Assembly (NCBI GenBank): GCA_963677815.1
Contig: OY782499.1
Coordinates: 536,147-600,146, forward strand
Length of the DNA: 64,000 nucleotides
Direction: 5' to 3'
Source of the DNA: Candidatus Cloacimonadales bacterium
GTDB taxonomy: Bacteria; Cloacimonadota; Cloacimonadia; Cloacimonadales; JAFGVF01
The position numbers and the translations under genes were made by a program. This document shows positions 3,239 through 62,195 of this stretch, one piece after another; position 1 is the stretch's first letter, and the number at the start of each line of letters is the position of its first letter. Under the pieces are notes generated by a model. It did no database searches. It saw only the letters and a program-made list of their open reading frames with translations, and had not been told where the DNA came from.

Positions 3239-3260
3239 TTTTCTCAGATATAAATTACTA

Positions 3261-3297
3261 ACAAGGATAAGTCATATGACTTGTCCTTGTTTTTTTT
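3261..3297 (+). terminator. Rho-independent terminator of the 1202-3238 gene
   Basis: A 13-bp stem acaaggataagtc/gacttgtccttgt (one G-U pair) with loop atat is followed by T7. Confidence 0.85.
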
Positions 3298-3375
3298 ATT
3301 TCTTCCTTATCACTCAATCTCGCATTATACTTGAACAAATTCAATAACTTAACTCTAATTTAACAGAGAATTTTC

Positions 3376-3403
3376 TTGACAGATTTACTATTTTAGATAT
3401 AAT
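3376..3403 (+). promoter_or_regulatory. Sigma70-type promoter for fusA
   Basis: TTGACA (3376-3381), a 16-nt spacer, then TATAAT (3398-3403), 30 nt upstream of the fusA ATG. Confidence 0.7.
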
Positions 3404-3433
3404 AATTTCTAAACTTTTTTAAAGGATAATCTC

Positions 3434-5527
3434 ATGGCAACTACAGAATTAGATAAAATTAGAAATATTGGTATTATGGCTCATATAGATGCGGGTAAAA
3501 CAACTACCACTGAAAGAATCCTCTTTTATACAGGAAACATTCATAGGATGGGAGAGGTTCACGATGGTAATACTACTATGGACTGGATGGAACAGGAAAA
3601 AGAAAGAGGTATTACAATTACTTCAGCAACAACAGTTTGCCATTGGAAACACAACCAAATCAATATAATTGACACACCTGGTCATGTTGATTTTACTGCT
3701 GAAGTTGAACGTTCGCTTAGAGTTCTAGATGGTGCTGTTGCTGTATTTTGTGCTGTTGGTGGTGTTGAACCTCAATCTGAAACAGTTTGGCATCAAGCAG
3801 ACAAATACAAAGTACCAAGAATTGCCTTTATCAACAAAATGGATAGAAGTGGTGCCGACTTCGAAAATGTTGTTGAAATGATTCAAGCGAGATTATCCGA
3901 TAAAGCTTTACCTATCCAATTACCAATAGGTAGTGAAGACAGTTTTGAAGGCATTATTGATTTAATCAATATGAAAGCCATATACTTTGATTCTTCTTCC
4001 TTAGGAGCTACTTTTGAAAGCAGGGAAATTCCAGAAGACCTACAAGCTGATGCAGAAATGCATCAAGAAGCTTTGATAGACTTTATTGCAGAGTTCGATG
4101 AAGCTCTTATGGAAAAATATTTAGAAGGACAAAGTTTGACTGCTTGTGAAATTATTTCACTTATTAGAAAAGCTGTTATTTCTAATAATTTCATTCCTGT
4201 TTTATGTGGTTCTTCTCTTAAGAACAAAGGAGTTCAACCCTTATTAGATGCCATAGTAGATTTCTTGCCCTCCCCTCTTGATGTTCCAGCTTTAATTGCA
4301 ACAACAGCTGACGGATTAAAAGAAGAGACTGTTTTACCTAAATTAAATTCTAAGTTTTCTGGTTATGCTTTTAAAGTAGTAACAGATAAATTTTCAGGAA
4401 AACTTGTCTATATCAGAGTTTATTCAGGTACTCTCAAAAAAGGTGACCAGTTCATCAATGTAAATAATGGAAAGAAGGAAAGAGCTGGTAGAATTCTCCA
4501 GATGTATTCAAATAGAAAGCAAGATGTTGATGAACTTCATGCAGGTGATATTGGTGCAGTATTAGGTACAAAATTTACTATGACAGGGGAAACTATCGCA
4601 GAAAAGAACTATAATATACTTCTAGCTAAAATGGATTTCCCGGATACAGTTATTTCAATTGCTATTGAAGCAAAATCTAAATCGGATGAAGCTTCACTAA
4701 AAGATGCTCTTATCAAATTCCAAGAAGAAGACCCAACAATCAAGGTTAGAGAAGATAAAGATACTGGACAAACCCTTATTTCAGGTATGGGTGAGCTTCA
4801 TCTAGAGATTATAGTTGATAGACTCTTTAGGGAATTTAATGTTAATGCTAATGTCGGCGACCCACAAGTTGCTTATAAAGAAACTATTATTGCCCCAAAT
4901 TCGGCTCATGAGTTATTTGATAGAATGCTTGGGGATAAGAGATGTTTTGCTGATGTGAAGATTAGAGTGTCTCCATTATCAGAAGAAGAAATCTCTTCAA
5001 AACAAAAAAATATTTATGAATATAAAGCAGATGAAAAACTTCCACTTAACTTCAGACATGCAATTGAAGAATCTGCAATTAATGCTCTTAATGATGGACC
5101 AATCTTTTCTGCAAATTTAGAGAGAGTTAGGGTTGAAATCTTAGAAGCAAGCACTCTTCCTGAAGAGTCCAATGATACTGGTTTTAGGATTGCTACTTCT
5201 ATGGCAGTATCTAGAGCTATCAGAGAAACTAAATCAGCTCTTCTAGAACCTATCATGCTGGTAACTGTAATAACTCCAGAAGAAAATGTGGGAGATATTA
5301 TAGCTGACATCAACAGTAAGAGAGGTAAGGTTGAAGAGATTAGAAGTCAGAACAATAATAAACAAGAAATCTTGGCTAAGGTTCCAATGAGAGAGCTTTT
5401 TGGTTATTCAACGACAATTAGATCTATTTCCTCAGGTAGAGCCATCTATACGATGGAATATGATAGTTATCAGATAGTACCAAATAATATTAAAGAAGAA
5501 ATTATTAAAAAGATTAGAGGATATTGA
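3434..5527 (+). CDS. fusA: Translation elongation factor G (stand-alone copy, not in an rpsL-rpsG-fusA-tuf context)
   Basis: G1 [10 protein letters not shown]3 DTPGH and G4 NKMD motifs are present. The 697-aa EF-G architecture is complete. Confidence 0.95.
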
Positions 5528-5568
5528 TACTAATAAGCAATTTGACTTTTTGCTCAAGTTTTGCAATA

Positions 5569-5733
5569 ATCCCGAATGGTACAGTAGAGCTTTAGAGAAG
5601 AGTGCAGATTCTTCTAGCAAAATAACTTACATAATTTAGACGCATATAACATATATATTCGGAGAAATTATGGAAGTTCCTTTTGCAGAATAATATAGTG
5701 CTATTCACAAAGGTCTACTGCATTATTTGGGAT
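5569..5733 (+). repeat. R1 repeat, copy 1 (short form, 165 nt): imperfect long palindrome / candidate structured RNA or MITE
   Basis: The ends atcccgaatggtacagtagag ... ctactgcattatttgggat pair. The right two-thirds aligns closely by eye with 39404-39503 and 48365-48459. It lacks the ~30-nt internal hairpin found in copies 2 and 3. Confidence 0.7.
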
Positions 5734-5740
5734 AATAAAA

Positions 5741-15832: not shown

Positions 15833-17458
15833 CTAATTTAACCTACGAGCCAAGCGGAAGCCCAGATAGTTGTAGCAATTAGACGGGTAATAGTAGTTGC
15901 GATAAGCTACCCGGCAGAAGTTAGCAAAGCCGTACCAGCTACCGCCCCGATACACACGGCGATAGCCACTAGCAGGTCCCACCGGATTAGTCTGAGCATT
16001 GGAAGAATAAGATCCATACCAATCATTACACCACTCATAAACATTACCGGACATATCATATATACCTAAACCATTAGGAGCCTTAGTTCCTACATTGTGT
16101 GTCGTGGAACTGGAATTATCATAATACCAAGCCACACTATTAATATCATCAGAACCTGCATAAAGGTAATCTGGATTATAAGTCCCACCTCTGGCTGCAT
16201 ATTCCCATTCTGCTTCTGTTGGTAACCTGTAGCCATTGGCTGAGTAATCACATTCCCAAGTACTAGTATTATAGCATGGTGTTAAACCTTCTTGAATACT
16301 TCTGGCATTACAGTATTCAACTGCATCATACCAGCTTACTTGTTCCACAGGTTTATCTAAACCTGAGAAATAAGAAGGATTAGTCCCCATCACAGCTTGA
16401 TATTCAGCTTGAGTAACTTCATATTTACCTATATAAAACGATGAGAGACTTACTTGGTGGGTTGGGACTTCGTCAGAATCTCCTGTTCCTGTTGTTCTTC
16501 CCATAGTGAAAGTCCCTGCAGGTACTAAAACAAAATTATCTGGTATCGTATATATTTCCTCTTCTACAAAAGCACTTTCAAAATCTTGATAAAAGCTTTT
16601 AACTCGATAAAGGTAAATAGATGATGATTCAATATCGCTATCTTCATACTCTTGAGAATTTGCACCCAAGACTGCATACTCTTCTATCCAGTCTTCATTA
16701 TCCTTTTTCCTTGCTATTTTAAATCCATCTTCACCCTGATTATTGTCTACCCAAGACAAATAAACTGATATAAGAGATGTTTGGACTATTTGTAAATTGC
16801 TTGGTGGTGTGAACTCATTATTAACAGAAGTTTCAATAAAATCTGAGTTTACTGTTTCATAATAACTCATTACTCTGTATACATATTCAGAATTAGGCAG
16901 AATTGAATTATCTTCATACTCTAGAGAATTTTGTTCCAATACAGCATATTCTTCTATCCAGTCGTCAGTATCCTTTTTCCTTGCTATTTTAAAGCCTTCT
17001 TCCCACTGATTATTGTCTTCCCAAGTCAATCGAACTGATGTAGGAGATGTTTGGACTATTTGCAAATTTCTTGGTGGTGAGAACTCAGTATTAATAGTAG
17101 TTTCAATAAACTCTGAGCTTATCTCATCATAACATGCCTTCACCCTATACTTATACTCACTATTAGGTATGATATTGCTATCAATATACTCCGTTAAACT
17201 CTCTGTTACTGTAGCATAATCTACATTCCAATCTTCATTATCCTTTTTTCTTGCGATTTTAAATCCTTCTTCACTCAATGAGTTATCTTGCCAAGTTAAC
17301 CTACATTTATTAACAGCTATTTGTTCAATATTGAGATTAGAAGGTCCTGGTAATGTGTAAGAGGGGTCATAAGGATTCACAAAATCATCATTATCACATG
17401 ACCCTATTATTAAAGCAGTAAGTATTAATATTATTAAATTAATAAGTTTTTTTTGCAT
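15833..17458 (-). CDS. Lipoprotein with three Fn3-like repeats and a C-terminal formylglycine-generating-enzyme (SUMF1/FGE-sulfatase) domain
   Basis: Lipobox IIGSC. There are three ~90-aa repeats (LTWxDNxxxEEGFKIARKKDxxDW...YxYRV). The FGE-type C-terminus includes GNVYEWCNDWY and RVYRGGSW. I moved the start to the ATG at 17458, which has AGGAGG upstream. The track start at 17497 overlaps the upstream gene. Confidence 0.8.
   Translation of the reverse strand: MQKKLINLIILILTALIIGSCDNDDFVNPYDPSYTLPGPSNLNIEQIAVNKCRLTWQDNSLSEEGFKIARKKDNEDWNVDYATVTESLTEYIDSNIIPNSEYKYRVKACYDEISSEFIETTINTEFSPPRNLQIVQTSPTSVRLTWEDNNQWEEGFKIARKKDTDDWIEEYAVLEQNSLEYEDNSILPNSEYVYRVMSYYETVNSDFIETSVNNEFTPPSNLQIVQTSLISVYLSWVDNNQGEDGFKIARKKDNEDWIEEYAVLGANSQEYEDSDIESSSIYLYRVKSFYQDFESAFVEEEIYTIPDNFVLVPAGTFTMGRTTGTGDSDEVPTHQVSLSSFYIGKYEVTQAEYQAVMGTNPSYFSGLDKPVEQVSWYDAVEYCNARSIQEGLTPCYNTSTWECDYSANGYRLPTEAEWEYAARGGTYNPDYLYAGSDDINSVAWYYDNSSSTTHNVGTKAPNGLGIYDMSGNVYEWCNDWYGSYSSNAQTNPVGPASGYRRVYRGGSWYGFANFCRVAYRNYYYPSNCYNYLGFRLARRLN
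16560..17345 (-). repeat. Intragenic tandem repeat, 3 x 270 nt (the Fn3-like modules)
   Basis: cttctatccagtc at 16681 and 16951, and ctacattccaatc at 17221, give an exact 270-nt period. Units 2 and 3 are highly similar at the DNA level. Confidence 0.8.
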
Positions 17459-17466
17459 CTTTCCTC

Positions 17467-19455
17467 CTAATTTCCTGCAATAACAGTTCTTATCCAACTA
17501 TAGAGGGAGTAGATAGCCACTCCTGAAGCTGTATAATAGCTATAATCTCTTATATCTCGCCAAGTTTGAGTTTTATCTTTATAATCTAGGGCATCAACAG
17601 GGTTTGTAGTATTTTCATATTGGTCATAATAGGAATTAGCTATAATGTTAGAAGTTATAGCTCCTCCCAGAATTAAACTAGCTAGACCTGTAGATATCCA
17701 AGCTCTTCTTTTATGTTTATCATAATGATATTGTTTTGAACCTGCATAAGTTTCTAAGGGAATGGTAATCTCCTTGTGTTCATTTTCAGTAACGGTAAGT
17801 TTCCCTTGGTAGTCTAAGAATTGAGGGTGAGTAACCTTGAGGTCATAATCACCATAGAGGAGGGAAAGGAGGGCTGGGCTTTTATTCTCAGCTAAGTCAT
17901 TATCTAGATAAATATTAGCATCATTGACTGCTCGATTATTGTTGTATTTATCAACTGTTAAGAGGGAAACTGAGCCTAGTCTAGCTTGTGGTTCTAAGTT
18001 TATAACTTCTTCAGCTCCTACGATAAGATTAATCTCTTTACTGGCATCGAAATGTTTATCTCTTCTGCCTGTAATCTGGTATTTACCTGGCTCTAGATTG
18101 ATGTCCAAATTATCATTGCCCATTTTGACATCATTCAGATATATATCACATTGAGGAGCAGTAATTTTGAGACTTCCAAAGTTTTGAGTTAGGACATATT
18201 CTTTCTTAATAGTCTCATTAGCTGGGATTACTAATTCTTCTTCTACTGGCAACCATAAGTCTTGGGATATCTTGATAGTGTAAGTTCCTGCCATTAGTTT
18301 TGGGTTATGGTAGGGTAGTTTTCCAATCTCTTCTCCGTTTAGACTTAGTAAAGCATTTGGAGTAGAAAGACAGCTAATAGTAACATCTGAAAAATTGGGA
18401 ATTAAGTCTTGGCTTATATCCACTTCATCTCCATCTTGGATCTCAAAAGATTTTGTGACTTTTTGATAAGTATCTAATTCTAAGCTTAATTGGTGCTGTC
18501 CGCTTTCAAGCCTAGTCTCAAGCAAAGGAGTTTTACCAAGGACTTGGTCATCTAAGATTATTCTAGCACCAGGAGGATTTGACTTGATAGAAATCAATCC
18601 ATACTTAGGTCTAAGTTCATACTTTGCTAATCTCAAGGTCTGGTTTGAGGCAAGATTAAATGTTGCTGTTTCTGGATAAAACAAGTCTTTTTCTATAGTG
18701 ATAGTATATTTTCCAGGGAAATGACTTCCTTGATAAGGAGTTAAACCAACTCTTAATCCGTTAAGGCTAACGCTTGCTTCTTCAGGTTGAGATTCAATAA
18801 TAACTAAGCCAGGAGGGGAGAATTTCTCCTCACTTTCCCCCACTTCTAAAGATATATCAATATTTTTATCTGCTTGGGAAATATCAACTATTTTTGTCAG
18901 GGTCTCAAATCCTTCTTTAGCAAATTTAAACTGATAAGTGCCTTTGGGTAGTTTATATTGAGCATAATTGTTTTTAGCCTTGAAGGGTGCGTTGTTGTCA
19001 TAGGAAACCATCACATTTTCAGTATTTAATTTAAAAGTGATAGTTTTTAAGTCAGAAGTAATATCACGTAAACCTTCCCCCTTCTCATCAAGTGTCATTT
19101 TATATACTTTCCCACTCACTAGAGGATATGGGAAGTCATAACGGTGGTCAGCGAAACCATCTTTAGCAAGGATAATATACTTGGCCCTTTCTTTAAGCAC
19201 CACCCAGTAAGACCCACCTTTATTAATCTGAGATATTTTACTGTTCATGTTTTTAAAAAATACATCTTTTAATCCACAGTTAATAATTACTAGGGCTCCT
19301 AATTTATTTCGATTATCCATTTTTAAATTGTTATCAAGATCATACAAACCCATGTGTAGAGGTTCTTCTTCTAAATCCGATACTATTTCAAACTGAGCTC
19401 CAAAAAGTAGTGTCGCCTGTATAACCAATAAGATAAATATTACAAACTGTTTCAT
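17467..19455 (-). CDS. PEGA-domain repeat protein with signal peptide and C-terminal TM anchor
   Basis: Contains repeated PEGA-like units (e.g. PPGARIILDDQVLGKTP, EEASVSLNGLRVGLTP). It has an N-terminal signal peptide and a C-terminal hydrophobic segment WISTGLASLILGGAITSNIIA. Confidence 0.7.
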   Translation of the reverse strand: MKQFVIFILLVIQATLLFGAQFEIVSDLEEEPLHMGLYDLDNNLKMDNRNKLGALVIINCGLKDVFFKNMNSKISQINKGGSYWVVLKERAKYIILAKDGFADHRYDFPYPLVSGKVYKMTLDEKGEGLRDITSDLKTITFKLNTENVMVSYDNNAPFKAKNNYAQYKLPKGTYQFKFAKEGFETLTKIVDISQADKNIDISLEVGESEEKFSPPGLVIIESQPEEASVSLNGLRVGLTPYQGSHFPGKYTITIEKDLFYPETATFNLASNQTLRLAKYELRPKYGLISIKSNPPGARIILDDQVLGKTPLLETRLESGQHQLSLELDTYQKVTKSFEIQDGDEVDISQDLIPNFSDVTISCLSTPNALLSLNGEEIGKLPYHNPKLMAGTYTIKISQDLWLPVEEELVIPANETIKKEYVLTQNFGSLKITAPQCDIYLNDVKMGNDNLDINLEPGKYQITGRRDKHFDASKEINLIVGAEEVINLEPQARLGSVSLLTVDKYNNNRAVNDANIYLDNDLAENKSPALLSLLYGDYDLKVTHPQFLDYQGKLTVTENEHKEITIPLETYAGSKQYHYDKHKRRAWISTGLASLILGGAITSNIIANSYYDQYENTTNPVDALDYKDKTQTWRDIRDYSYYTASGVAIYSLYSWIRTVIAGN

Positions 19456-19561: not shown

Positions 19562-19639
19562 TTCAATCCTCAAGTTATTCTTTCCAATAGCTTATCTTTA
19601 AATAAGTCGATAAAATTTCACATCTTTACCTTTTCTTGA
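19562..19639 (+). repeat. R3 repeat, copy 1 (78 nt)
   Basis: 70 of 78 positions are identical to 39576-39653 (ttcaatcctcaagtta...atagcttatctttaaa...gtcgataa...tttaccttttcttga). Confidence 0.85.
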
Positions 19640-19768
19640 AATTTTTTCAAGATTGTTTATTGGTAACAAAGCCTCTTCTGTCGGAAGGCCTGTCTTCCCT
19701 AGCTTTAGCGAAGGGAGATGGAGATTCTCTCCGCCATCTGCGTAACCGCGGGCTGAAATCCCAATACC

Positions 19769-19897
19769 CTATGGACTGGCAGCATCTTGCTGCCAGATTA
19801 ACAGGCTTTGTAAGCCTGTTGTGGATGCAAGATGCACCCACTCCATACAATCCTTTCTCTATTTTAAATTTCTTGTTTTTATTTTTACACAGCCTGG
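19769..19897 (+). repeat. R2 motif, copy B (three-hairpin core 19769-19850 plus downstream module tttttacacagcctgg at 19883-19897)
   Basis: The sequence is ctatggactgg, then hp1 ctggcagca-tct-tgctgccag, hp2 acaggc-tttgtaa-gcctgt, hp3 gtggatgca-aga-tgcacccac, then the tail ccactccatacaa. Confidence 0.8.
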
Positions 19898-19934: not shown

Positions 19935-19990
19935 AGATTGTTACTTACTCATTAAATCATTGGCATTTTATCGAGAGAGTAACAATGAAG
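19935..19990 (+). repeat. R4 hairpin repeat, copy 1
   Basis: agattgttacttactc-attaaatcattggcattttatc-gagagagtaacaat aligns with 62114-62174 and with the reverse complement of 48603-48666. Confidence 0.65.
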
Positions 19991-20149
19991 AGACAGGAAA
20001 TAAGGCAAGTGAGTGATACTGAATCAAGCCTTACCCAAGTGAAAAAGCAACTAAAGGTGATTAAATTGCATTCTAGAGATATAATCTTGACATATCATAA
20101 GCTCTAATCTTTCTATTCAGAACATATAAATAAAATAAAGGGGCACAAA

Positions 20150-29231: not shown

Positions 29232-29263
29232 CATATAAAAGACCATTAACAAAGTTGTTTTTG

Positions 29264-29356
29264 TCAGGTCCGGTGCAACTTTAACCCTCGAACCATGTCA
29301 GGTCAGGAATGAAGCAGCATTAAGAGGTGCTTAAAGTGTGCAACCGGTAGCCTGGC
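29264..29356 (+). ncRNA. ffs: Signal recognition particle RNA (small, 4.5S-type)
   Basis: Has the conserved domain IV core gtcaggtcaGGAAtgaagcagc (GGAA tetraloop plus the AGCAGC symmetric-loop strand). The 5' gtcaggtccgg pairs with the 3' ccggtagcctggc. A T7 run follows. Confidence 0.8.
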
Positions 29357-29493
29357 TTTTTTTATATCCAATTTTATAAAAACCCACTTATAACAAGATT
29401 ATTCCCAAACACAAGAAAAAAATATCGAAAAAAACTTGCCAAAAAAGCAATTCCTACTAAATTAGTATATAATACTAAATAAAAGGATGAAAG

Positions 29494-37340: not shown

Positions 37341-38191
37341 ATTCGCCCCATGTGCATCTTCTTACGCATAATCTGATAGAAAGTCTTGTTTGATAATTTA
37401 ATAAAATCTACCTTCTTGGTCGCACCATTAATTTTTATGACATCCCCCTCCTCCAAGGAGATAACATTTACCCCATCAACTTGTAGCATTGGTTGGTCAT
37501 GACAAGAAATCAATTCAAATGAAAGTAAATCCTTGGCTGAAAAGACAATTGGCCTAATTGAAAGGATATGAGGATTTAGTGGACAAAAGACTATTGCTTC
37601 CATAAGAGGGTCGAGAATAGGTCCACCTCCAGAAAGAGAATAAGCTGTGGAACCAGTAGGAGTTGAAGCAACTAAGCCATCACATCGAGTAGTATAGATA
37701 AGTCTATTGTTAGTCCTAATTTTTACCTCTATCATCTTGGGAGTGTTCGCTCTAAAGAGAACTGCATCATTTAAGGCTAAATCCCTATATATTAACTTAT
37801 TATCTCTGTACACTTTTATATCAAGCAAGAGACGAGATTGTACTTTATACCTGTTATTAATTAGCAGTTGGATTGACCTTTCTAAAAGCTCAGGTTTGGT
37901 CTCAGAAAGAAATCCTAGTTTACCTATATTAATTCCTAGAAGAGGGGCATTAGTAAGTAAGGCATACTTCTTTGCCCTCAAAATTGTTCCATCGCCACCA
38001 AAAACTAATATTGAATTTAAAGTTATCCCTTTCCCATACTGAAAGGCTTTTACAAAGTCTGGTAGAATATCTAATTGATCATCAAAACCATAAAATTCAA
38101 TATCATAATTATCGTTAAGACTTTTAATAATCTCACTCTGTTTTTGCCTATCATAATATTCTGTATGGATAAAAAGACCAAATTTATTCAT
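37337..38191 (-). CDS. nadK: NAD kinase
   Basis: Has the GGDGT motif (VFGGDGTILRA) and a C-terminal NAD-kinase fold. It overlaps recN by 4 nt. Confidence 0.9.
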   Translation of the reverse strand: MNKFGLFIHTEYYDRQKQSEIIKSLNDNYDIEFYGFDDQLDILPDFVKAFQYGKGITLNSILVFGGDGTILRAKKYALLTNAPLLGINIGKLGFLSETKPELLERSIQLLINNRYKVQSRLLLDIKVYRDNKLIYRDLALNDAVLFRANTPKMIEVKIRTNNRLIYTTRCDGLVASTPTGSTAYSLSGGGPILDPLMEAIVFCPLNPHILSIRPIVFSAKDLLSFELISCHDQPMLQVDGVNVISLEEGDVIKINGATKKVDFIKLSNKTFYQIMRKKMHMGRI

Positions 38192-39257
38192 AATTCACCG
38201 ATTCTATAATCCTTAAATATGATTCATATACCTTTTGGGGTAGTTCCCCTCTTGCAAGAGCATCTAAAACCCCACAATTATCTTCATGGGTGTGGCTACA
38301 ATTGTTAAAATAACAGGCATACCTATCAAAACCTGGAAAGTTATTATAGACTAAACTGACATTATCCCTTTTTAAGGCTAATGTTTTTATACCTGGTGTA
38401 TCTACTATGAAGCCACCAAAATCCCATTCTAATAGTTTTGAATTTGTTGTAGTGTGGCGTCCCTTTTCATTATAATCACTTATCTGCCCAACCTTCAAAT
38501 CTAAACTAGGCATTAAGGCATTTATAACAGAAGATTTACCTACTCCTGACTGTCCAGAGAATACCGATATCTTATTTGTTATTAATTCTTTGAGCTGCTC
38601 AATTCCTTGGCCACTTTCAGCAGAAACAAAAAAGCTTTTATAACCACTTTCAATATAATAGGCTAGCATTTCTTGATAATATTCTAAATCATCAACTAAG
38701 TCTATCTTATTCACACAAATAACCGGTTCTATATTATCAATACCACATTGAATAATAAATCTATCTATAATACCTAACTTTAGCATAGGTTGGACACATG
38801 AAACTGTGATAATAGCATAATCCATGTTACTAGCAATTAGAATTTCTTTTTGATAGGAACCTTCAGAATACCTCATTAGCTTATTTTTTCGATCTATTAA
38901 CTCTTCAATCCTGTAAGGAGAACCTTGAGAAGTATCTATCTTTACCTTATCACCAATTGCCATTACCCGTCTTTGATTGAACATAAACTGCTTAAGACGA
39001 CCACCAAGCAAGGCTGTGACTTCTTGACCATTTAATCTAACCTTAAACATATTGTTGGTCATAATTTCTGTAATAAGACCATCTTCTAGATTTACATCTC
39101 GTTTAAGAGTCTTCTTATTCCTGTTTTGCCCCCTACTTATAGCCTTTTTTTCATGACCATAGTCATAATCTAAAAAATCATCAACATCATCAATATGAAT
39201 ATTTTTTAAATTACGCTCAGTTGACTTAATCCTTACTTTATCTTTTCTTTTATCCAT
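38184..39257 (-). CDS. rsgA: Ribosome small-subunit-dependent GTPase A
   Basis: Shows circularly permuted GTPase order (NKIDL before GQSGVGKSS) and a C-terminal zinc motif CYFNNCSHTHEDNCGV. Confidence 0.9.
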   Translation of the reverse strand: MDKRKDKVRIKSTERNLKNIHIDDVDDFLDYDYGHEKKAISRGQNRNKKTLKRDVNLEDGLITEIMTNNMFKVRLNGQEVTALLGGRLKQFMFNQRRVMAIGDKVKIDTSQGSPYRIEELIDRKNKLMRYSEGSYQKEILIASNMDYAIITVSCVQPMLKLGIIDRFIIQCGIDNIEPVICVNKIDLVDDLEYYQEMLAYYIESGYKSFFVSAESGQGIEQLKELITNKISVFSGQSGVGKSSVINALMPSLDLKVGQISDYNEKGRHTTTNSKLLEWDFGGFIVDTPGIKTLALKRDNVSLVYNNFPGFDRYACYFNNCSHTHEDNCGVLDALARGELPQKVYESYLRIIESVNYE

Positions 39258-39283
39258 TTGTACCCATTTTTTGTTCTTTGTTC

Positions 39284-39503
39284 AACCCAGATGGTGTAGT
39301 AGAACTTTATTAATACTTCGCTAAAGCTACGTATCTCAGGTGAAGAGTGCAGATTATTCTAGCAAAATCCCCTTCTTCGAGGGGGATACAGAGGGTGATT
39401 CCTTAAACTACGCATATAATATATATATTCGGAGAAATTATGGAAGTTACTTTTGCAGAATAATATAGTGCTATTCACAAAGGTCTATTGCATTATTTGG
39501 GTT
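39284..39503 (+). repeat. R1 repeat, copy 2 (long form, 220 nt)
   Basis: The left arm aacccagatggtgtagtagaactttattaata pairs with the right arm tattcacaaaggtctattgcattatttgggtt. Of 32 positions, 24 are Watson-Crick, 5 are G-U/U-G and 3 are mismatches. The left end lies 27 nt from the rsgA start codon. Confidence 0.75.
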
Positions 39504-39575
39504 CAAGTATCAAATCTAATGGTTTTGTTGTAAAGATTTTTTTTAGAAGAGTTTAGTTTGAACATATTGAGAGTG

Positions 39576-39653
39576 TTCAATCCTCAAGTTACTATTTCTA
39601 ATAGCTTATCTTTAAACATGTCGATAATATTGCACATATTTACCTTTTCTTGA
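39576..39653 (+). repeat. R3 repeat, copy 2 (78 nt)
   Basis: About 90% identical to 19562-19639. Confidence 0.85.
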
Positions 39654-40169
39654 CTTTGGTGAAAAATTATGATTAGTAACATATACCCTACATTGGATTG
39701 GATTTCCGATAAGACACATCTTTTTTCAAGTAGCAGGAGTAAATTCATAAAAATCTCGGAGAGATGCAGATATAATAGGCATCCTTCCAGGATTAATGAG
39801 GATATATTTCAATATCCGAAATTTAGACAAGAATGTATTTATAAGTCAATTTGAAAAACTTAGCTATAAACTTAAAAATGTGCATGAATTGCTTTAGTTA
39901 GCACGAGTACATGCTATCTTTCAATTGTTTAGATTGAACAGTCTCAACATATTTACCATGGATTTGTAACCAAGTTATTGATTGTATATCTATTTAAATT
40001 TAAGATCTTAAAGAAGTTCTTGACATAAATTTGCAAATTACATAACTTTGGATTATGATAATTGATGTTGAAAAATAAATTGTCAGAGTATGAAATTTTA
40101 TTAGATTAACCGGTCCAGTTTCATTATAAGCTTTTAGTTTATAAAAAATATAATTAACTAATATATTAA

Positions 40170-41138
40170 ATGGATGTAAAAATGAAGAGACTTCTTCTAA
40201 TGTTATTAATTCTATTTATCATAATTCTACAATTATATGCTGATAGATATGAGTCAGTTCTTGTTGATACAATATACTGTGAACCTAACTCTATGACTGG
40301 GGATATTATTTATAATATGGAGTATAATGATTATTACTATTTCCCCAATGAACCATCCTTAAACATTGCTTATGATCAGAACTCTTTTCTAGGACCAGGT
40401 GTCACTGAATGTAGATCATTTGTTACATTCGAGACTAAACCAGTACCTAATAATTACCTTATATCAAATGTAATACTTCAACTTTACTGTTGGTATTATT
40501 GGGATAATGGGATAGAGTATATATGGCCACACTACTATTCGACCCCCTACACAGTCAATATTGATCATATACAATATGAGACAATAGCTCCTTCTGTTTT
40601 TGATATTGAATCACTTACTTCCAATGTAGGGGTCTTGCAGGACAGTGCTTATGTTGGTTGGGTCTCTTCTCTGGTTTCCGAGAGCTATCTTGACGATATT
40701 GAACAATCACGAGAATATTCGCAGTTTAGGCTGAGATTCCCACCAGGCCATGATATAGTCGGATATTCATCAGATTATGTATATTATGAAAATAACCCAT
40801 CTTCGTTTAGTTCATTTAATCCACACCTAATTGTAACCTACCATAAAACAGTTTCAAATTCTCAAGATGTTGAATCTATACCGAATCAGTTAATCAAACA
40901 AGTTTATCCACAACCTAGTAAAAATAATTTCAATATTGAATTTATGGATAAAGATAATAAACCCATTAATCTGTCTCTTTATGACCTTCGAGGTAGATTA
41001 GTTCACTCTGAAATCAATGTAGCTAAAAAAAATGGAATTGCAAAAATTCCAGTTTTAGATTATCCATCAGGCATATATTTTCTCAAGGTTAAAGCTGACA
41101 AGAAAAGCGAAGTTAGGAAAATAACTATTTTGAAATAA
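40170..41138 (+). CDS. Secreted protein of unknown function with T9SS C-terminal sorting domain (tandem paralog 1)
   Basis: Has a signal peptide and the C-terminal tail YPQPSKNNFNIEF...LSLYDLRGRLV...GIYFLKVK. An alternative start is the ATG at 40182. Confidence 0.7.
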   Translation: MDVKMKRLLLMLLILFIIILQLYADRYESVLVDTIYCEPNSMTGDIIYNMEYNDYYYFPNEPSLNIAYDQNSFLGPGVTECRSFVTFETKPVPNNYLISNVILQLYCWYYWDNGIEYIWPHYYSTPYTVNIDHIQYETIAPSVFDIESLTSNVGVLQDSAYVGWVSSLVSESYLDDIEQSREYSQFRLRFPPGHDIVGYSSDYVYYENNPSSFSSFNPHLIVTYHKTVSNSQDVESIPNQLIKQVYPQPSKNNFNIEFMDKDNKPINLSLYDLRGRLVHSEINVAKKNGIAKIPVLDYPSGIYFLKVKADKKSEVRKITILK

Positions 41139-41162
41139 ATGCCCAAACAAGAGGAGAAAAAG

Positions 41163-42119
41163 ATGAAAATGAAAATCCTTTTATTACTATTTTTAATTCA
41201 CACGATAATACCGATTTATGCTCAAGAAGACGATTCAGTTCTTGTTGATACAATATACTCTGAACCTATACCTATGACTGGGAATATTATCTACAACATG
41301 GAATCTCATGATTATTACCATTACCCCAATATGACATCCTTAATTATTGCATATAATATGAGATTTGATTTACCTGTTGGCATTGAAGAAAGTAGATCGT
41401 TTATTACATTTGATACTAAGCCAGTGCCTAATAATTACATTATAGCAAGTGTAACTCTTCAACTTTATTGTTGTTACTATTGGGATAACAGCATAGATCT
41501 TATATGGCCTCACTACTATTCGACCCCATACTCAGTCATTATTGACCACATCCAATTTGAGACCTTAACTCCTTCCGTTTTTGATCTTGAACCCCTTACA
41601 GCTAATGTGGGGGTCTTGCAGGATAGTGCTTATATTGGTTGGGTCTCCTTTCCGATTACCGAGAGCTATCTTAACGATATTGAACAAACTAGAGAATATT
41701 CGCAGTTTAGGCTGAGATTCCCTCCAGGTCATGATATAGTCGGATATTCATCAGATTATGTTGCATATGCAAATAACCCATCTTCATCTAATTCATTTGA
41801 TCCACACCTAATCGTAACCTACCATAAATCAGTGTCAAATTCTCAAGAGGTTGAACCCTTGCAGACTCAGCTAATCAAACTGATATATCCACAACCTAGT
41901 AAAAATAATTTCAATATTGAATTTATGGATAAAGATAATAAACCCATTAATCTGTCTCTTTATGATCTCCGAGGTAGATTAGTTCACTCTGAAATCAATG
42001 TAGCTAAAAAAAATGGAATTGCAAAAATTCCAACTTTAGATTATCCATCAGGCATATATTTCCTCAAGGTTAAAGATGGAAATAAAAGCGAAGTTAGGAA
42101 AATAACTATTTTGAAATAG
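41163..42119 (+). CDS. Secreted protein of unknown function with T9SS C-terminal sorting domain (tandem paralog 2)
   Basis: I chose the ATG at 41163 (MKMKILLLLFL), which has GAGGAG 6 nt upstream. The track ATG at 41139 directly abuts the paralog-1 stop and lacks an SD. Confidence 0.7.
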   Translation: MKMKILLLLFLIHTIIPIYAQEDDSVLVDTIYSEPIPMTGNIIYNMESHDYYHYPNMTSLIIAYNMRFDLPVGIEESRSFITFDTKPVPNNYIIASVTLQLYCCYYWDNSIDLIWPHYYSTPYSVIIDHIQFETLTPSVFDLEPLTANVGVLQDSAYIGWVSFPITESYLNDIEQTREYSQFRLRFPPGHDIVGYSSDYVAYANNPSSSNSFDPHLIVTYHKSVSNSQEVEPLQTQLIKLIYPQPSKNNFNIEFMDKDNKPINLSLYDLRGRLVHSEINVAKKNGIAKIPTLDYPSGIYFLKVKDGNKSEVRKITILK

Positions 42120-45078: not shown

Positions 45079-45206
45079 CAGACTGTGTAAAAATGAAAAT
45101 GAGATTTTCAGATGGAGCAAGGGTTGTATGGAGTGGATGCATCTTGCATCTACAACAGGCTCTGAAAGCCTGTTTAATCTGGAGGCAAGATGCCTCCAGT
45201 CCATAG
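45079..45206 (-). repeat. R2 motif, copy D (three-hairpin core 45206-45124 plus downstream module tttttacacagtctgg, read on the minus strand)
   Basis: The minus strand reads ctatggactgg, then hp1 ctggaggca-tct-tgcctccag, hp2 acaggc-tttcaga-gcctgt, hp3 gtagatgca-aga-tgcatccac, then the tail ccactccatacaa. Confidence 0.8.
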
Positions 45207-45436: not shown

Positions 45437-48247
45437 TTATTTCATCAATACCATCTTCCCACTTATAGCCTTACTAGTAGTTTTTATTTTATATAGATAT
45501 ACTCCAGAAGCTACTTTATTACCCTGCTTGTCTCTTCCCGTCCATAGGACTTTTTGTTTACCTGCTAACTGTTCTTCATTAAGCAAAGTCTTTACTAATT
45601 GCCCTTTCAAGTTATAAATATCTACTTTCACTGGTCCAGTTTTTGGTAAATCATAAGAAATAGTAGTTTCAGGATTAAAAGGATTAGGATAATTATAAGT
45701 TGTAAAAGTAAGAGGAACTACTTCATCAGAATTATTTGGGACAAAGTAAGATAAGTCAATTAAATCACAAAAAACTCCTGGATTATTCGATAAATCATTT
45801 TCAATTCTACTAACATAAATACTATTATTATCAATCACACTTATTGCTGGTTTATATTGATATGTGAGATTTAAAGGTAAGGCAAATCCATCTTGAAATT
45901 GGTCTAATTGACCTTGAAAATTAATAGTCCTTAAATACACCCTCTGACTACCTGGAAGCTCTTGAGTATAAGCAAGCACAAATCTATCTTCCAAGGCTTT
46001 AAGAGAAAAGTCACTAACATACTCAGCTAATGTTTCTTGCCACACTTCCTCAAAATTATTATCTAAATTATAGCAGGATATTACTAATTCATCATTATTA
46101 TTATGGAACTTATAAAATCTATTATCAATTACATGGGATTCAATAATGTTATTATTAGTGCAAGGAAAAGTATAGTTAACTGTTTGTGACAAATCATCCA
46201 GATTAATATCAAAGACTTTGTATGTATCATTTGTGGAATATGAGAAGAGTAATCTATTTTGATAAGAAGAGATATTTCTATTTCTCGAAATATAATCATA
46301 ATCATCAGTAAAACTTTGACCTTCAGCAGTCCAACCATTAGCCAGTTCCCCTTCAGCGTCTATCTGAGTAATTTTGAAGTCTCCATTATATCTACTTATA
46401 AGATAATTGTCTTCAACTGCTAATAAGTCTAAATTCTCAATGGGTATATAAGAGATGGCAAGCATATTACCATCTTCAATTTTATTAAAAACATAATCTG
46501 CTCCTCCCCAATCAGAAGTCTTGTAAACAAACCAGCCATTACCCTCTTCAATGTCAGTCAAATAATCATAAGAATAATCTCCACCAAATCCACCGTGGAG
46601 TATCATTGTCTCTATGCTTCCATCTTCCTTGAATAATTTAGCTCTTTGACTTACACTAACTCCTGTACCATAATGATAAATATTATAATAAACTAGATAG
46701 CTATTTTCTGATATTCTATGCAAAGAACTATTTCCACAATCAGTAAGAATATTTTCTAATCCTATTGGCATACCACTTTCATCTACCCCACTCTCCAAAA
46801 AACAGTTCCATGAAAACATTACTGCATTATTATTATCATTCCAAATGAATGAATTGACCTTGTCTATCTCATAAGGAAATGACACAGCTATTTCCTGAGG
46901 ATTTGAAGTTGCATCAGATGCCGATTCATAAGCAATAAAATGTTGTTTATAAGCAGAATAATACCCAAGTCTATGATTAACAATAAAGGAAGCACTTGTA
47001 GCTCCTAGATTAACAAAAAGGGCAGAATCTTCACCACAGTCTCCCGATATATAATCCTCAGCAAAAATCAGAGAGTTATCATTGAGATTATAACTATAAA
47101 AACCTACCTTAACACCATAATTTGCTTGCAAATAGTCTGTTTTACTTACAAGTACAAGCCTATAGTTTTCACCTACTATCTCACTATCTACACTGGTAAT
47201 TTGATCAAAAATATAATTAAATCCATCAAAAATCGAGCCGAATATCTCATAGTGATTAGTTGAATTAATTAAACTTCCATCAATGTTATATTCTCTTAAA
47301 AGAAGAACATCACCTATCGATACAGCTAAAAATTCATTTTCTGAAATTTTTTGTACATCTAGCAAAGGATATTCTAAAGTAGTAGTAGTAAATTCACCAA
47401 GTAGTCGATCATAGATAAAGACGTCAGGATATTGCCCCATAGAACTAAATAAGTTTGCAGAAGCTTCTGTAATTAATCCAAAGAGTACTTTATCATTACT
47501 TAGCTCTAATATCTTGCATGTCTTATATAAATTTTCATCAAAGACACTCGAAACATAAGAGTTGTAATTATCAATCTCATGGTCTGTATTACCTATTCTT
47601 ATGAATAGCTTACTCTCGTCAGGTTGTAACCACATGTAGGTAAGTCCATCACTTGTTATTGCTCCAGTATAAGACACAAGATTTTCACCCTCGGCAATAA
47701 TATTCTGACTTATTATTTGTGGTATATTATTTACAAGATTAATCTTATAATTGGTCAGACAATCATCGTAATCTACCGAGCCATAGTTCACTAGTACATA
47801 GATATCATTTTCATCTTCCAATAACTGAACCTCTTTTAATATTCCATCTGCATACTCAAGTAAGTAAATTTCTAAAGGTAAGTCCCATAAATCTAAACCA
47901 GCACTTGAAATCTTCTTAACCAATAGCCTGTTTCCATCTTCCCAATATATAAAAAAGTTGCCATCTGCACTTCTTTTAATTTCGAATAACCATTCTTCAT
48001 CTATCTGAAAGTTTAAATCAATAGCCTGCTCTAATAATGGGTCTCCAGTTTGAGAATATTTTTCTAATAAGAGTTGATTATTTAAAGTATAAAATATTAT
48101 TGTTCCTTCTGGAATATTTTCTTTATAAACTATTGAACTTTTACTTCTTTGATACATACAAGCAGATTGGTCCCATATAACCTGAGATAATAGACAACTG
48201 ATAGCAGTCAAGAATAGTATAGCAAGTACAAGATTTTTCTTATTCAC
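45437..48247 (-). CDS. Large secreted protein of unknown function with T9SS C-terminal sorting domain
   Basis: Has a signal peptide and the C-terminus NYPNPFNPETTISYDLPKTGPVKVDIYNLKGQLV...GVYLYKI. AGGAGGA sits upstream of the ATG. Confidence 0.75.
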   Translation of the reverse strand: MNKKNLVLAILFLTAISCLLSQVIWDQSACMYQRSKSSIVYKENIPEGTIIFYTLNNQLLLEKYSQTGDPLLEQAIDLNFQIDEEWLFEIKRSADGNFFIYWEDGNRLLVKKISSAGLDLWDLPLEIYLLEYADGILKEVQLLEDENDIYVLVNYGSVDYDDCLTNYKINLVNNIPQIISQNIIAEGENLVSYTGAITSDGLTYMWLQPDESKLFIRIGNTDHEIDNYNSYVSSVFDENLYKTCKILELSNDKVLFGLITEASANLFSSMGQYPDVFIYDRLLGEFTTTTLEYPLLDVQKISENEFLAVSIGDVLLLREYNIDGSLINSTNHYEIFGSIFDGFNYIFDQITSVDSEIVGENYRLVLVSKTDYLQANYGVKVGFYSYNLNDNSLIFAEDYISGDCGEDSALFVNLGATSASFIVNHRLGYYSAYKQHFIAYESASDATSNPQEIAVSFPYEIDKVNSFIWNDNNNAVMFSWNCFLESGVDESGMPIGLENILTDCGNSSLHRISENSYLVYYNIYHYGTGVSVSQRAKLFKEDGSIETMILHGGFGGDYSYDYLTDIEEGNGWFVYKTSDWGGADYVFNKIEDGNMLAISYIPIENLDLLAVEDNYLISRYNGDFKITQIDAEGELANGWTAEGQSFTDDYDYISRNRNISSYQNRLLFSYSTNDTYKVFDINLDDLSQTVNYTFPCTNNNIIESHVIDNRFYKFHNNNDELVISCYNLDNNFEEVWQETLAEYVSDFSLKALEDRFVLAYTQELPGSQRVYLRTINFQGQLDQFQDGFALPLNLTYQYKPAISVIDNNSIYVSRIENDLSNNPGVFCDLIDLSYFVPNNSDEVVPLTFTTYNYPNPFNPETTISYDLPKTGPVKVDIYNLKGQLVKTLLNEEQLAGKQKVLWTGRDKQGNKVASGVYLYKIKTTSKAISGKMVLMK

Positions 48248-48264
48248 TTTATCCTCCTCTGTTT

Positions 48265-48459
48265 AACCCAGATTGTGCAATAGAGCTTTAGTAATACTTC
48301 GCTAAAGCTACGTATCACAGGCGAAGAGTGCATATTCTTTTAGCAAAATAGCTTACAGAATTCCGACGCATATAATATATATATTCGGAAGAATTATGTA
48401 AGTTACTTTTGCAAAAGAATATAGTGCTATTCTCAAAGATCTATTGCATTATTTGGGTT
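48265..48459 (+). repeat. R1 repeat, copy 3 (195 nt)
   Basis: The ends aacccagattgtgcaatagag ... atctattgcattatttgggtt pair. The left end is 18 nt from the start codon at 48247 and abuts its Shine-Dalgarno. Confidence 0.75.
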
Positions 48460-48544
48460 TAATTCATCACAACATATTTCATGCATTATTTATTCCAATT
48501 GTACATTAACTGGTTAAATTATTATCTCCAAAGATTCTTAATAT

Positions 48545-48574: not shown

Positions 48575-48602
48575 GTTTCCTGAAAATTCATAAGCTTACG
48601 GT

Positions 48603-48666
48603 CTCTTGATTGTTACTCTCTCAATAAAAAGCCAATGATTTATAGAGTGATTAACAATCAAGGAAG
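48603..48666 (-). repeat. R4 hairpin repeat, copy 2 (inverted relative to copies 1 and 3)
   Basis: The reverse complement ccttgattgttaatcactctataaatcattggctttttattgagagagtaacaatcaagag aligns with 62114-62174. Confidence 0.7.
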
Positions 48667-62113: not shown

Positions 62114-62174
62114 TCCTCGATTGTTAGTCTCTCAATGAATTATTGGCTTTTTATTGAGAGACTAACAATCAAGA
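62114..62174 (+). repeat. R4 hairpin repeat, copy 3 (between convergent radC and htrA-like genes)
   Basis: An 18-bp perfect stem gattgttagtctctcaat/attgagagactaacaatc with loop gaattattggcttttt. Confidence 0.8.
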
Positions 62175-62195
62175 CACTATAATGATTAATATTAA

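Follow-up and report, generated by a model that had tools for sequence, protein, structure and literature searches.

Insertion sequences of the IS1380 family typically duplicate 4-5 bp of their target (ISfinder). The piggyBac transposons of eukaryotes have CCC...GGG termini and a palindromic target that resembles TTAA. The Correia elements (CREE) of Neisseria and the ERIC/IRU elements of enterobacteria are abundant intergenic palindromic MITEs, often found in leaders or 3' UTRs, and their targets resemble promoter or A+T-rich motifs, so that insertions land beside genes. R1, the repeat described here, is like them in these respects, but the Correia and ERIC elements duplicate TA, are documented to bring promoters, IHF sites or processing by RNases, and differ from R1 in their transposase family. 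MITEs that are derived from bacterial insertion sequences and mobilised in trans have been reviewed as a general class, as have the outward promoters of IS1380 elements, the fusion promoters of CREE, and CREE duplications that resemble a -10 hexamer (PMC9330008). The IS1380 transposases are the prokaryotic outgroup for piggyBac, and the target of piggyBac is TTAA (PMC10813416).

In the window, by which we mean the whole 64,000-nt stretch of Candidatus Cloacimonadales DNA that was analysed, reading of the sequence base by base revealed three copies of R1, all in + orientation. Copy 3 (48267-48457, +) is a 191-nt form of the MITE that runs from CCC to GGG, has imperfect terminal inverted repeats, and folds into a hairpin over its whole length. 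Direct reading of its flanks gave a 5-bp target-site duplication, TTTAA, at 48262-48266 on the left and 48458-48462 on the right. Copy 2 (39286-39501, +) belongs to a 216-nt subfamily with two internal modules, one of which, a G+C-rich hairpin at 39369-39384, is terminator-like on the minus strand; its duplication, read in the same way, is TTCAA (39281-39285 and 39502-39506). Copy 1 (5571-5731, +) is the 161-nt core form and is flanked by the directly read duplication ATAAT (5566-5570 and 5732-5736). The ends given in the first-pass annotation (48265, 48459 and 39284) were about right, except that each of them takes in 2 nt of the target duplication. No open reading frame of 60 aa or more was found within the R1 copies of the window.

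Two of the copies lie beside the start of a gene on the minus strand. Copy 3 is 8 nt away from the Shine-Dalgarno sequence AGGAGGA (48252-48258, minus) and 19 nt away from the GTG start codon (48245-48247, minus) of a gene at 45437-48247 (minus), which encodes a 936-aa secreted protein with a T9SS C-terminal sorting domain (Por_Secre_tail and FlgD_ig in Pfam) and an N-terminus that, as read from the translation, is signal-peptide-like. The first-pass annotation had recognised this adjacency and had located the ribosome-binding site correctly, but it had R1 directly adjoining that site and 18 nt from an ATG. Copy 2 is separated by 28 nt, rather than the 27 nt first reported, from the ATG (39255-39257, a start backed by orthologue alignment) of rsgA (38184-39257, minus), whose product is the RsgA GTPase by Pfam. 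Copy 1 lies between fusA and gap, whose 3' ends converge on it, and Pfam confirmed EF-G and GAPDH on its two sides. Pfam also matched a pirin and, in all, two proteins of the Por_Secre_tail (T9SS) kind. To the left of both copy 2 and copy 3 lies coding sequence on the strand opposite to R1.

A scan with the core motif AATATAGTGCTATTCNCAAAG found R1 in at least 105 blocks of 8 kb from four Candidatus Cloacimonadota/Cloacimonadales MAGs (JAEKNW01, CAXXJV01, OY829950 and OY782831), a set that does not include the window's own 2.88-Mb genome. The best DNA identity between the window and the scanned genomes was 76-83%, which is that of related species. Among the matches listed, we collected 76 complete non-redundant copies, 73 of them from the four genomes and 3 from the window. 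Their lengths ranged from 159 to 274 nt with modes at 161, 191 and about 214 nt. Every one of the 76 started with CCC, ended with GGG and had imperfect terminal inverted repeats (CCCRRATGGTGCAGTAGA... and ...TCTAYTGCATTATTTGGG), and the terminal helix was 97% paired. A perfect 5-bp direct duplication was present in 56 of the 74 copies for which both flanks were available. Nine different sequences were duplicated, with TTAAA (24) and TTTAA (18) as the most common and the others likewise A+T-rich (ATAAT, ATTAT, TTCAA, TTAAT and similar). Because these flanks are direct rather than inverted and vary from copy to copy, they are target-site duplications and not parts of the element. The reconstructed target was T(85%)-T(100%)-W-A(100%)-A(81%), and its logo showed no base preference outside the pentamer. 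Numerous copies lay at contig ends in JAEKNW01.

We also screened the loci for an autonomous element, taking any two R1-like ends that were 0.4-4 kb from each other and had matching duplications. Among the loci screened, a transposase was found between such ends in one alone, L051 (from OY829950), in which an element of 1,694 bp at 2124-3817 is flanked by a TTTAA duplication. The ends of this element (CCCAAATAATGCAGTA... and ...TGCATTATTTGGG) match those of R1 without a difference for 16 and 13 nt; its single open reading frame encodes a transposase of 469 aa. The protein matched the Pfam family DDE_Tnp_1_4 with 90.9 bits (cut-off 34.7) and the NCBIfam IS1380 model NF033539 with an E value of 1.1e-51 over 416 of 419 positions, at 175.8 bits against a curated cut-off of 180; the next-best NCBIfam family, IS1634, reached only 57.5 bits. 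Among annotated sequences, those on plasmids came closest in tblastn: an 'IS1380 family transposase' at 32% identity with 94% coverage (E 4e-52), and ISEcp1 at 27% identity. No homologue of the L051 transposase was found in the window or in the other fetched loci. A second candidate, L048 81-1434, was rejected as an autonomous element; it consists of ordinary genes between two MITEs. Since R1 has the ends and the duplication of what is probably an IS1380-family element, it is presumably moved in trans by a DDE transposase of that family, to judge from these sequence matches.

A described insertion sequence of this family is ISEcp1, which in its database record is 1,656 bp long with the ends CCTAGATTCTACGT and CCTAAATTCCACGT. 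The partner of R1 in L051 resembles it: at 1,694 bp it is of similar size, its transposase shows homology along the entire protein, and its duplication is A+T-rich and 5 bp long. The ISEcp1 ends begin CCTAGATT and CCTAAATT and the R1 ends begin CCCAGATT and CCCAAATA, the full R1 ends used in this comparison being CCCAGATTGTGCAA and CCCAAATAATGCAG. The partner element starts CCCAAAT... where ISEcp1 has CCTAGAT and CCTAAAT, so that both have ends of the form CC-AGAT or CC-AAAT. R1 itself, unlike ISEcp1, has no transposase, has 13-16 terminal nucleotides in common with the insertion sequence, and has no outward promoter that we could detect. To our knowledge, the target of ISEcp1 is less strict than the TTWAA of R1. 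The resemblance to piggyBac lies in the CCC...GGG ends and the TTAA-like target; R1, in contrast, duplicates the 5 bp TTWAA rather than the 4 bp TTAA, and its host is bacterial. We regard a relationship of R1 and IS1380 to piggyBac as a lead only.

Insertion-free versions of the two start-proximal sites were found in relatives. A metagenome scan with RsgA recovered three orthologous loci with 77-83% protein identity, and R1 was present in none of the three. In L106, L107 and L109 R1 was absent upstream of rsgA and of the 936-aa protein gene. L106 is syntenic with the rsgA locus on both sides, and removing R1 and one duplication from the window leaves a region upstream of rsgA that is as long as that of L106. 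The minus strand of the window after excision of R1 and one TTGAA reads ...CTTTACAACAAAACCATTAGATTTGATACTTGAACAAAGAACAAAAAATGGGTACAAATG, and it aligns without a gap to L106, ...CTTTACAACATAACTACCTAATATGATAAGTGAGTAAAGAAGACAAAACAGGTAATTATG. An orthologue of the 936-aa protein (P0002; 86% identical and of equal length) is encoded in L109, a contig of GCA_016342615.1, without R1 upstream. The intergenic region between this gene and the divergent pirin gene measures 188 nt in the R1-free L109 and 497 nt in the window, and on the same contig rsgA also lacks an upstream R1. The absence of both insertions from orthologues that are 77-87% identical in DNA or protein shows copies 2 and 3 to be recent arrivals, specific to this lineage, and not conserved regulatory features. 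An R1 downstream of fusA in JAEKNW01 (L019) was considered as an ancient orthologue of copy 1 and rejected; the alignment shows an independent insertion, oriented the other way round, flanked by TTTAA and placed about 240 nt from the fusA stop.

These data identify R1 as a non-autonomous transposable element, a MITE. Like other MITEs derived from bacterial insertion sequences, it is short, non-coding, multicopy and intergenic, it has inverted repeats of the IS type and a duplication of fixed length, and it has both empty sites and an autonomous relative. Unlike them, R1 forms one long hairpin in its entirety, not at its ends alone, and it occurs in modular length classes (161, 191 and about 214 nt). 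We found no description of the R1 family, or of any MITE from Cloacimonadota, in the searchable literature.

The first-pass annotation had proposed that R1 inserts repeatedly at a constant distance from start codons, with a spacing of 15-30 nt that might be found again at other copies. We called genes in all loci with a simple home-made ORF heuristic and measured the distance from each copy to its flanking genes; the resulting statistics describe the sister genomes and the window, not the window's own 2.88-Mb genome. No called ORF contained any of the 76 copies, though 84% of TTAAA/TTTAA sites are genic. In-silico excision of R1 uncovered at most one convincing gene disruption, in L069, where a long reading frame was restored. 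The 64 R1 ends that face a start codon were at a median distance of 190 nt, with a range from 19 to more than 1000 nt. Copy 3 of the window is the closest to a start among the 64 ends listed, and none is nearer than 19 nt. The null distribution came from every TTAAA/TTTAA site that these intergenic regions contain once R1 is excised. Eight of the 64 start-facing ends (12.5%) fell at 13-35 nt from the start, as against 11.7% of the null sites (p = 0.84), and 3.4% of the null lies at 12 nt or less. The constant spacing was thus not a property of the family, whose distances fit the TTWAA null, and the sister genomes gave no sign of a bias toward starts. This is the outcome that the first-pass annotation had named as speaking against a positional rule, here obtained in sister genomes. 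R1 as a repeat clearly exceeds chance; its closeness to starts does not. In the window, two of the four start-facing ends are at 13-35 nt, for which the same null gives a probability of about 0.07. Ends that face a stop codon were enriched within 12 nt of it (12 of 68 vs 8%, p = 0.011), which fits the presence of TAA inside the target TTAAA.

Orientation relative to genes was unbiased. Start-facing ends were co-oriented with the gene in 34 cases and anti-oriented in 30, and stop-facing ends divided 34 to 34. Between co-directional genes, 17 copies were sense and 10 antisense. Six of the eight start-proximal copies were antisense, with the left arm toward the gene, a proportion that is not significant; both start-proximal copies of the window are antisense to their gene. 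The closeness of R1 to starts is explained by the choice of TTWAA as target together with selection against hits in genes and ribosome-binding sites, and two copies abutting start codons are ordinary given this preference and purifying selection. Of the three readings offered in the first-pass annotation (promoter or leader donation, antisense regulation, and insertion-site preference), the last alone has direct evidence, and the preference is for the 5-bp TTWAA, not for a distance from the start.

We next considered how rsgA and the 936-aa protein gene might be transcribed. With only 19 and 28 nt between R1 and the starts, the earlier deduction that any promoter of the two genes lies inside or beyond R1 holds. 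The promoter-like box TTTACA-17-GATACT, which had been reported upstream of copy 2, is present at 39506-39534 (minus), about 6 nt from where it had been placed, and is conserved in the R1-free relatives, as TTTACA-17-GATAAG in L106 and as TTTACA in L107. The target pentamer of copy 2 overlaps the final base of the -10-like hexamer, this base being also the last of the right duplication, and R1 follows directly after the hexamer. Should this box be the promoter, R1 in reverse complement has to be part of the rsgA leader, as had been anticipated, and it probably is. Upstream of copy 3, we found by eye the candidate TTGGAA-16-TATGTT, which is weak and poorly conserved with L109. A Bacteroidota-type TAnnTTTG box (TACTTTTG) on the plus strand at about 48404-48412 was rejected; it has no -33 TTTG and faces away from the abutted genes. 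On the minus strand R1 folds at -46 to -62 kcal/mol, with z from -2 to -6.6; in folds of the leaders this hairpin was self-contained, and sequestration of the Shine-Dalgarno sequence or the start codon by R1 was not seen. A terminator scan of the R1 region gave counts at chance level. In copy 2, the hairpin at 39384-39369 is followed by a U-run in the orientation of the rsgA leader, an arrangement common to the copies of about 214 nt in three genomes, and by its sequence this hairpin might attenuate or block read-through.

Taken together, we hold it very likely that R1 is a MITE mobilised by IS1380-type elements at TTWAA, and that its closeness to starts comes from its targets and from selection rather than from regulatory design. 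An IS1380-family DDE transposase would mobilise R1 in trans through a 5-bp staggered cut at TTWAA. Such targets are common in the A+T-rich DNA near genes, in the spacers between promoter and ribosome-binding site and at TAA stop codons. Insertions within genes or ribosome-binding sites are lost, so that the survivors are intergenic, some of them right beside start codons, as the statistics of the sister genomes show. Upstream of rsgA, copy 2 hit a TTGAA overlapping the last base of the conserved -10-like hexamer, and copy 3 hit a TTAAA that lies 3 nt upstream of the AGGAGGA of the 936-aa protein gene. Because both reading frames are intact, we infer that both genes are still expressed. They would be transcribed from promoters beyond R1, so that each 5' leader would include R1 in reverse complement, folded into a long, self-contained hairpin whose end lies 8-28 nt ahead of the translation start. 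If regulation is affected at all, whether through mRNA stability, RNase processing or, in copy 2, partial termination, this would be a by-product of the insertion and would not account for the spacing.

The same arrangement could be read as regulatory in origin. An outward promoter at the left end of R1 might drive rsgA and the 936-aa protein gene, as in ISEcp1 and ISPme1 or in the fusion promoters of Correia elements. The lack of promoter space between R1 and the two starts, the full-length, intact state of both reading frames and the tendency of the left arm to face the gene in the start-proximal copies (6 of 8, not significant) are all compatible with this, and strong outward promoters are known in IS1380-family elements (PMC9330008). 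Nevertheless, sigma-70-like matches in and around R1 were at the level of shuffled sequences (5 vs 4.2 and 11 vs 7.6), by a consensus that may not be that of Cloacimonadota, and the final 60 nt of the outward-reading left arm had no match at all to this consensus, which may not be the host's. Moreover, R1 has only the terminal 13-16 nt in common with the insertion sequence, and therefore did not inherit its subterminal region; its orientation to downstream genes is random; and rsgA already has a conserved promoter-like box beyond R1. We found no evidence that R1 has a promoter-donating role, and consider this reading very unlikely. Somewhat less doubtful, though still unlikely, is that the R1 hairpin was domesticated and kept at the two sites as a leader module that tunes expression, as ERIC or Correia elements may do through stability, RNase III or RNase E. 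If transcription starts from the upstream box, R1 necessarily lies in the leader; the minus-strand hairpin is long and stable and ends just before the Shine-Dalgarno sequence, and the subfamily of copy 2 carries its terminator-like hairpin in leader orientation. Against this, both insertions are missing at the nearest orthologous loci, so there is no sign of selective retention, and the family has neither positional nor orientation enrichment. Expression may well be affected, but nothing shows selection for such an effect. The outward promoter and the bias of position or orientation that mark regulatory use were thus looked for in R1 and not found.

What a purely DNA-level selfish element does not explain is the wobble bias on the plus strand and the compensatory changes. 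In the 47 unique copies of 159-162 nt (out of 68 unique copies of mixed length), the whole of R1 forms one long hairpin of 55 consensus pairs, with 97.8% of the cells paired. Compensatory double changes were observed at six pairs, including swaps from C-G to G-C and from A-U to U-A, and the covariation exceeded that of all 500 shuffles and all slid controls, although the copies are related by descent. Polymorphic mismatches on the plus strand comprised nine G.U sites and one A.C site (202 vs 7 cells). The mean fold energy was -65.8 kcal/mol for the plus strand and -47.4 kcal/mol for the minus strand, and the plus strand was the more stable in 75 of the 76 copies, a figure that, like the covariation, overstates independence because the copies share descent. 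One could read this signal, and the antisense orientation of both start-proximal copies of the window, as the mark of a plus-strand R1 RNA that regulates the leaders of copies 2 and 3 near the ribosome-binding site. A full-length plus-strand transcript, however, needs an outside promoter, which a mobile element cannot bring, and copies 2 and 3 have opposite-strand coding sequence on their left. The orientation to neighbouring genes is random across the family, which speaks against systematic antisense action, and R1 matches no Rfam family. The kinship of the copies inflates both the 75 of 76 and the shuffle test, and strand-biased deamination or an asymmetric requirement of the transposon ends could give the same pattern. 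We judge antisense regulation to be highly improbable. A more general version, in which R1 is under strand-specific structural selection and acts as a single-stranded hairpin, either as an RNA module or as an ssDNA intermediate of transposition, is doubtful but the least remote of these alternatives. The strand bias may come from differing needs of the two transposon ends, from a phase as ssDNA, from deamination that favours one strand, or from selection acting on the RNA of source copies. Were R1 an RNA module, it would alter the fate of any transcript that carries it, including the leaders of rsgA and of the T9SS cargo gene; strand-specific selection, if true, would make R1 a regulatory MITE family like Correia or ERIC, or offer a view into the mechanism of IS1380 transposition, in an uncultured phylum.

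R1 has consequences for annotation. R1 and its relatives account for many long 'empty' intergenic regions and for contig breaks in Cloacimonadota assemblies, and hairpins of the R1 type should not be taken for regulatory RNAs or promoters. The family is a good case of an IS1380-type transposase whose target, TTWAA, is strict. With rsgA and the gene of a large T9SS-secreted protein, a hairpin of about 200 nt was recently gained between the presumed promoter and the ribosome-binding site, which constitutes a natural experiment on how much a leader tolerates. The plus-strand wobble bias is the small signal that the mobile-element reading leaves over.

In Rfam 15 at the gathering score, the sole match in the window was the SRP RNA at 29262-29360, with none for R1, and a relaxed search over copy 3 returned only sub-threshold noise of the miRNA-hairpin type. 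Beside copy 2 lies a separate block of about 390 nt (39556-39951, approximate borders), which is missing from the orthologous locus L106, is unrelated to R1, and contains the repeat D7 (39576-39668). The intergenic region of copy 3 also holds R2, a different palindromic repeat of 69 nt (48596-48664, +).

Among the polymorphic non-Watson-Crick pairs of the R1 hairpin, G.U on one strand makes up nearly all (9 sites vs 1) in A3, an alignment of 47 unique copies of this miniature element, and several internal pairs have both of their bases exchanged. A selfish element that exists only as DNA does not account for such a difference between the strands. An internal G+C-rich hairpin module (CCCCTTCTTYGAGGGGG) is present in some R1 copies, namely those of a subfamily of ~214 nt found in related Cloacimonadota genomes (L022, L047, L069, L087 and L088) and in the window. 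Read on the minus strand, the module precedes ATTTTGCT and has the score of an intrinsic-terminator-like site; in R1 copy 2, upstream of rsgA, it lies at 39369-39384 and has the same orientation as the rsgA leader.

The IS1380-family partner of R1 is a complete insertion sequence at L051 2124-3817 (OY829950.1, ~2,034,124-2,035,817), with CCC...GGG ends and a TTTAA duplication. With a TTWAA target and ends of CCC it resembles piggyBac, which has a TTAA target and CCC...GGG ends, and it may serve as a bacterial comparator for target choice of the piggyBac type. R1 copies are at times arranged head-to-tail with one shared TTAAA, or one copy is nested in another (L062 6705-7059; L086; L032; L037), which shows that the duplicated target is used repeatedly. 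These arrangements generate composite repeats and, in turn, breaks in short-read assemblies; many R1 copies of JAEKNW01, a Cloacimonadota MAG, are located at contig ends.

R1 copy 2 is adjoined by a block of ~390 nt (39556-39951) that is missing at the orthologous locus L106. The block contains a 61-aa ORF (39669-39854) and a 93-nt core, D7 (39576-39668), of which a related copy (19562-19654) lies ~500 nt upstream of a different, plus-strand gene (20150). D7 has 11 matches in the fetched loci. The block could be a second element, mobile or promoter-bearing.

R1 copy 3 shares its intergenic region with a 69-nt palindromic repeat, R2 (TCTCTTGATTGTTACTCTCTC...GAGTGATTAACAATCAAGGA), at a distance of 135 nt. 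R2 occurs at 48596-48664 (+), 62114-62182 (-) and 19936-19999 (-), folds into one hairpin of ~-20 kcal/mol whichever strand is taken, and is probably another small family of the MITE or REP type.

A further repeat of ~100 nt, R3, has two copies in the window, at 19775-19875 (+) and 45106-45200 (-), and two further matches in the fetched Cloacimonadota loci. It consists of three successive 9-bp hairpins with loops of 3 nt, CTGGCAGCA-TCT-TGCTGCCAG, ACAGGCTTT-GTA-AAGCCTGT and GTGGATGCA-AGA-TGCACCCAC, and its stems show compensatory changes between the two window copies (CTGGCAG/CTGCCAG vs CTGGAGG/CCTCCAG). R3 had no match in Rfam; it may belong to the REP/BIME-like elements or represent a structured RNA. 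The sole Rfam family at gathering score across the window was the bacterial small SRP RNA (RF00169, 75.5 bits; 29262-29360, + strand).

A gene for a T9SS-tail protein is duplicated in tandem (40170-41138 and 41139-42119; 73-84% identical over 200-300 nt), and the orthologous contig L109 has a single 276-aa gene at this place. Three tandem 270-nt repeats lie at 16639-17295, within the ORF 15833-17497.
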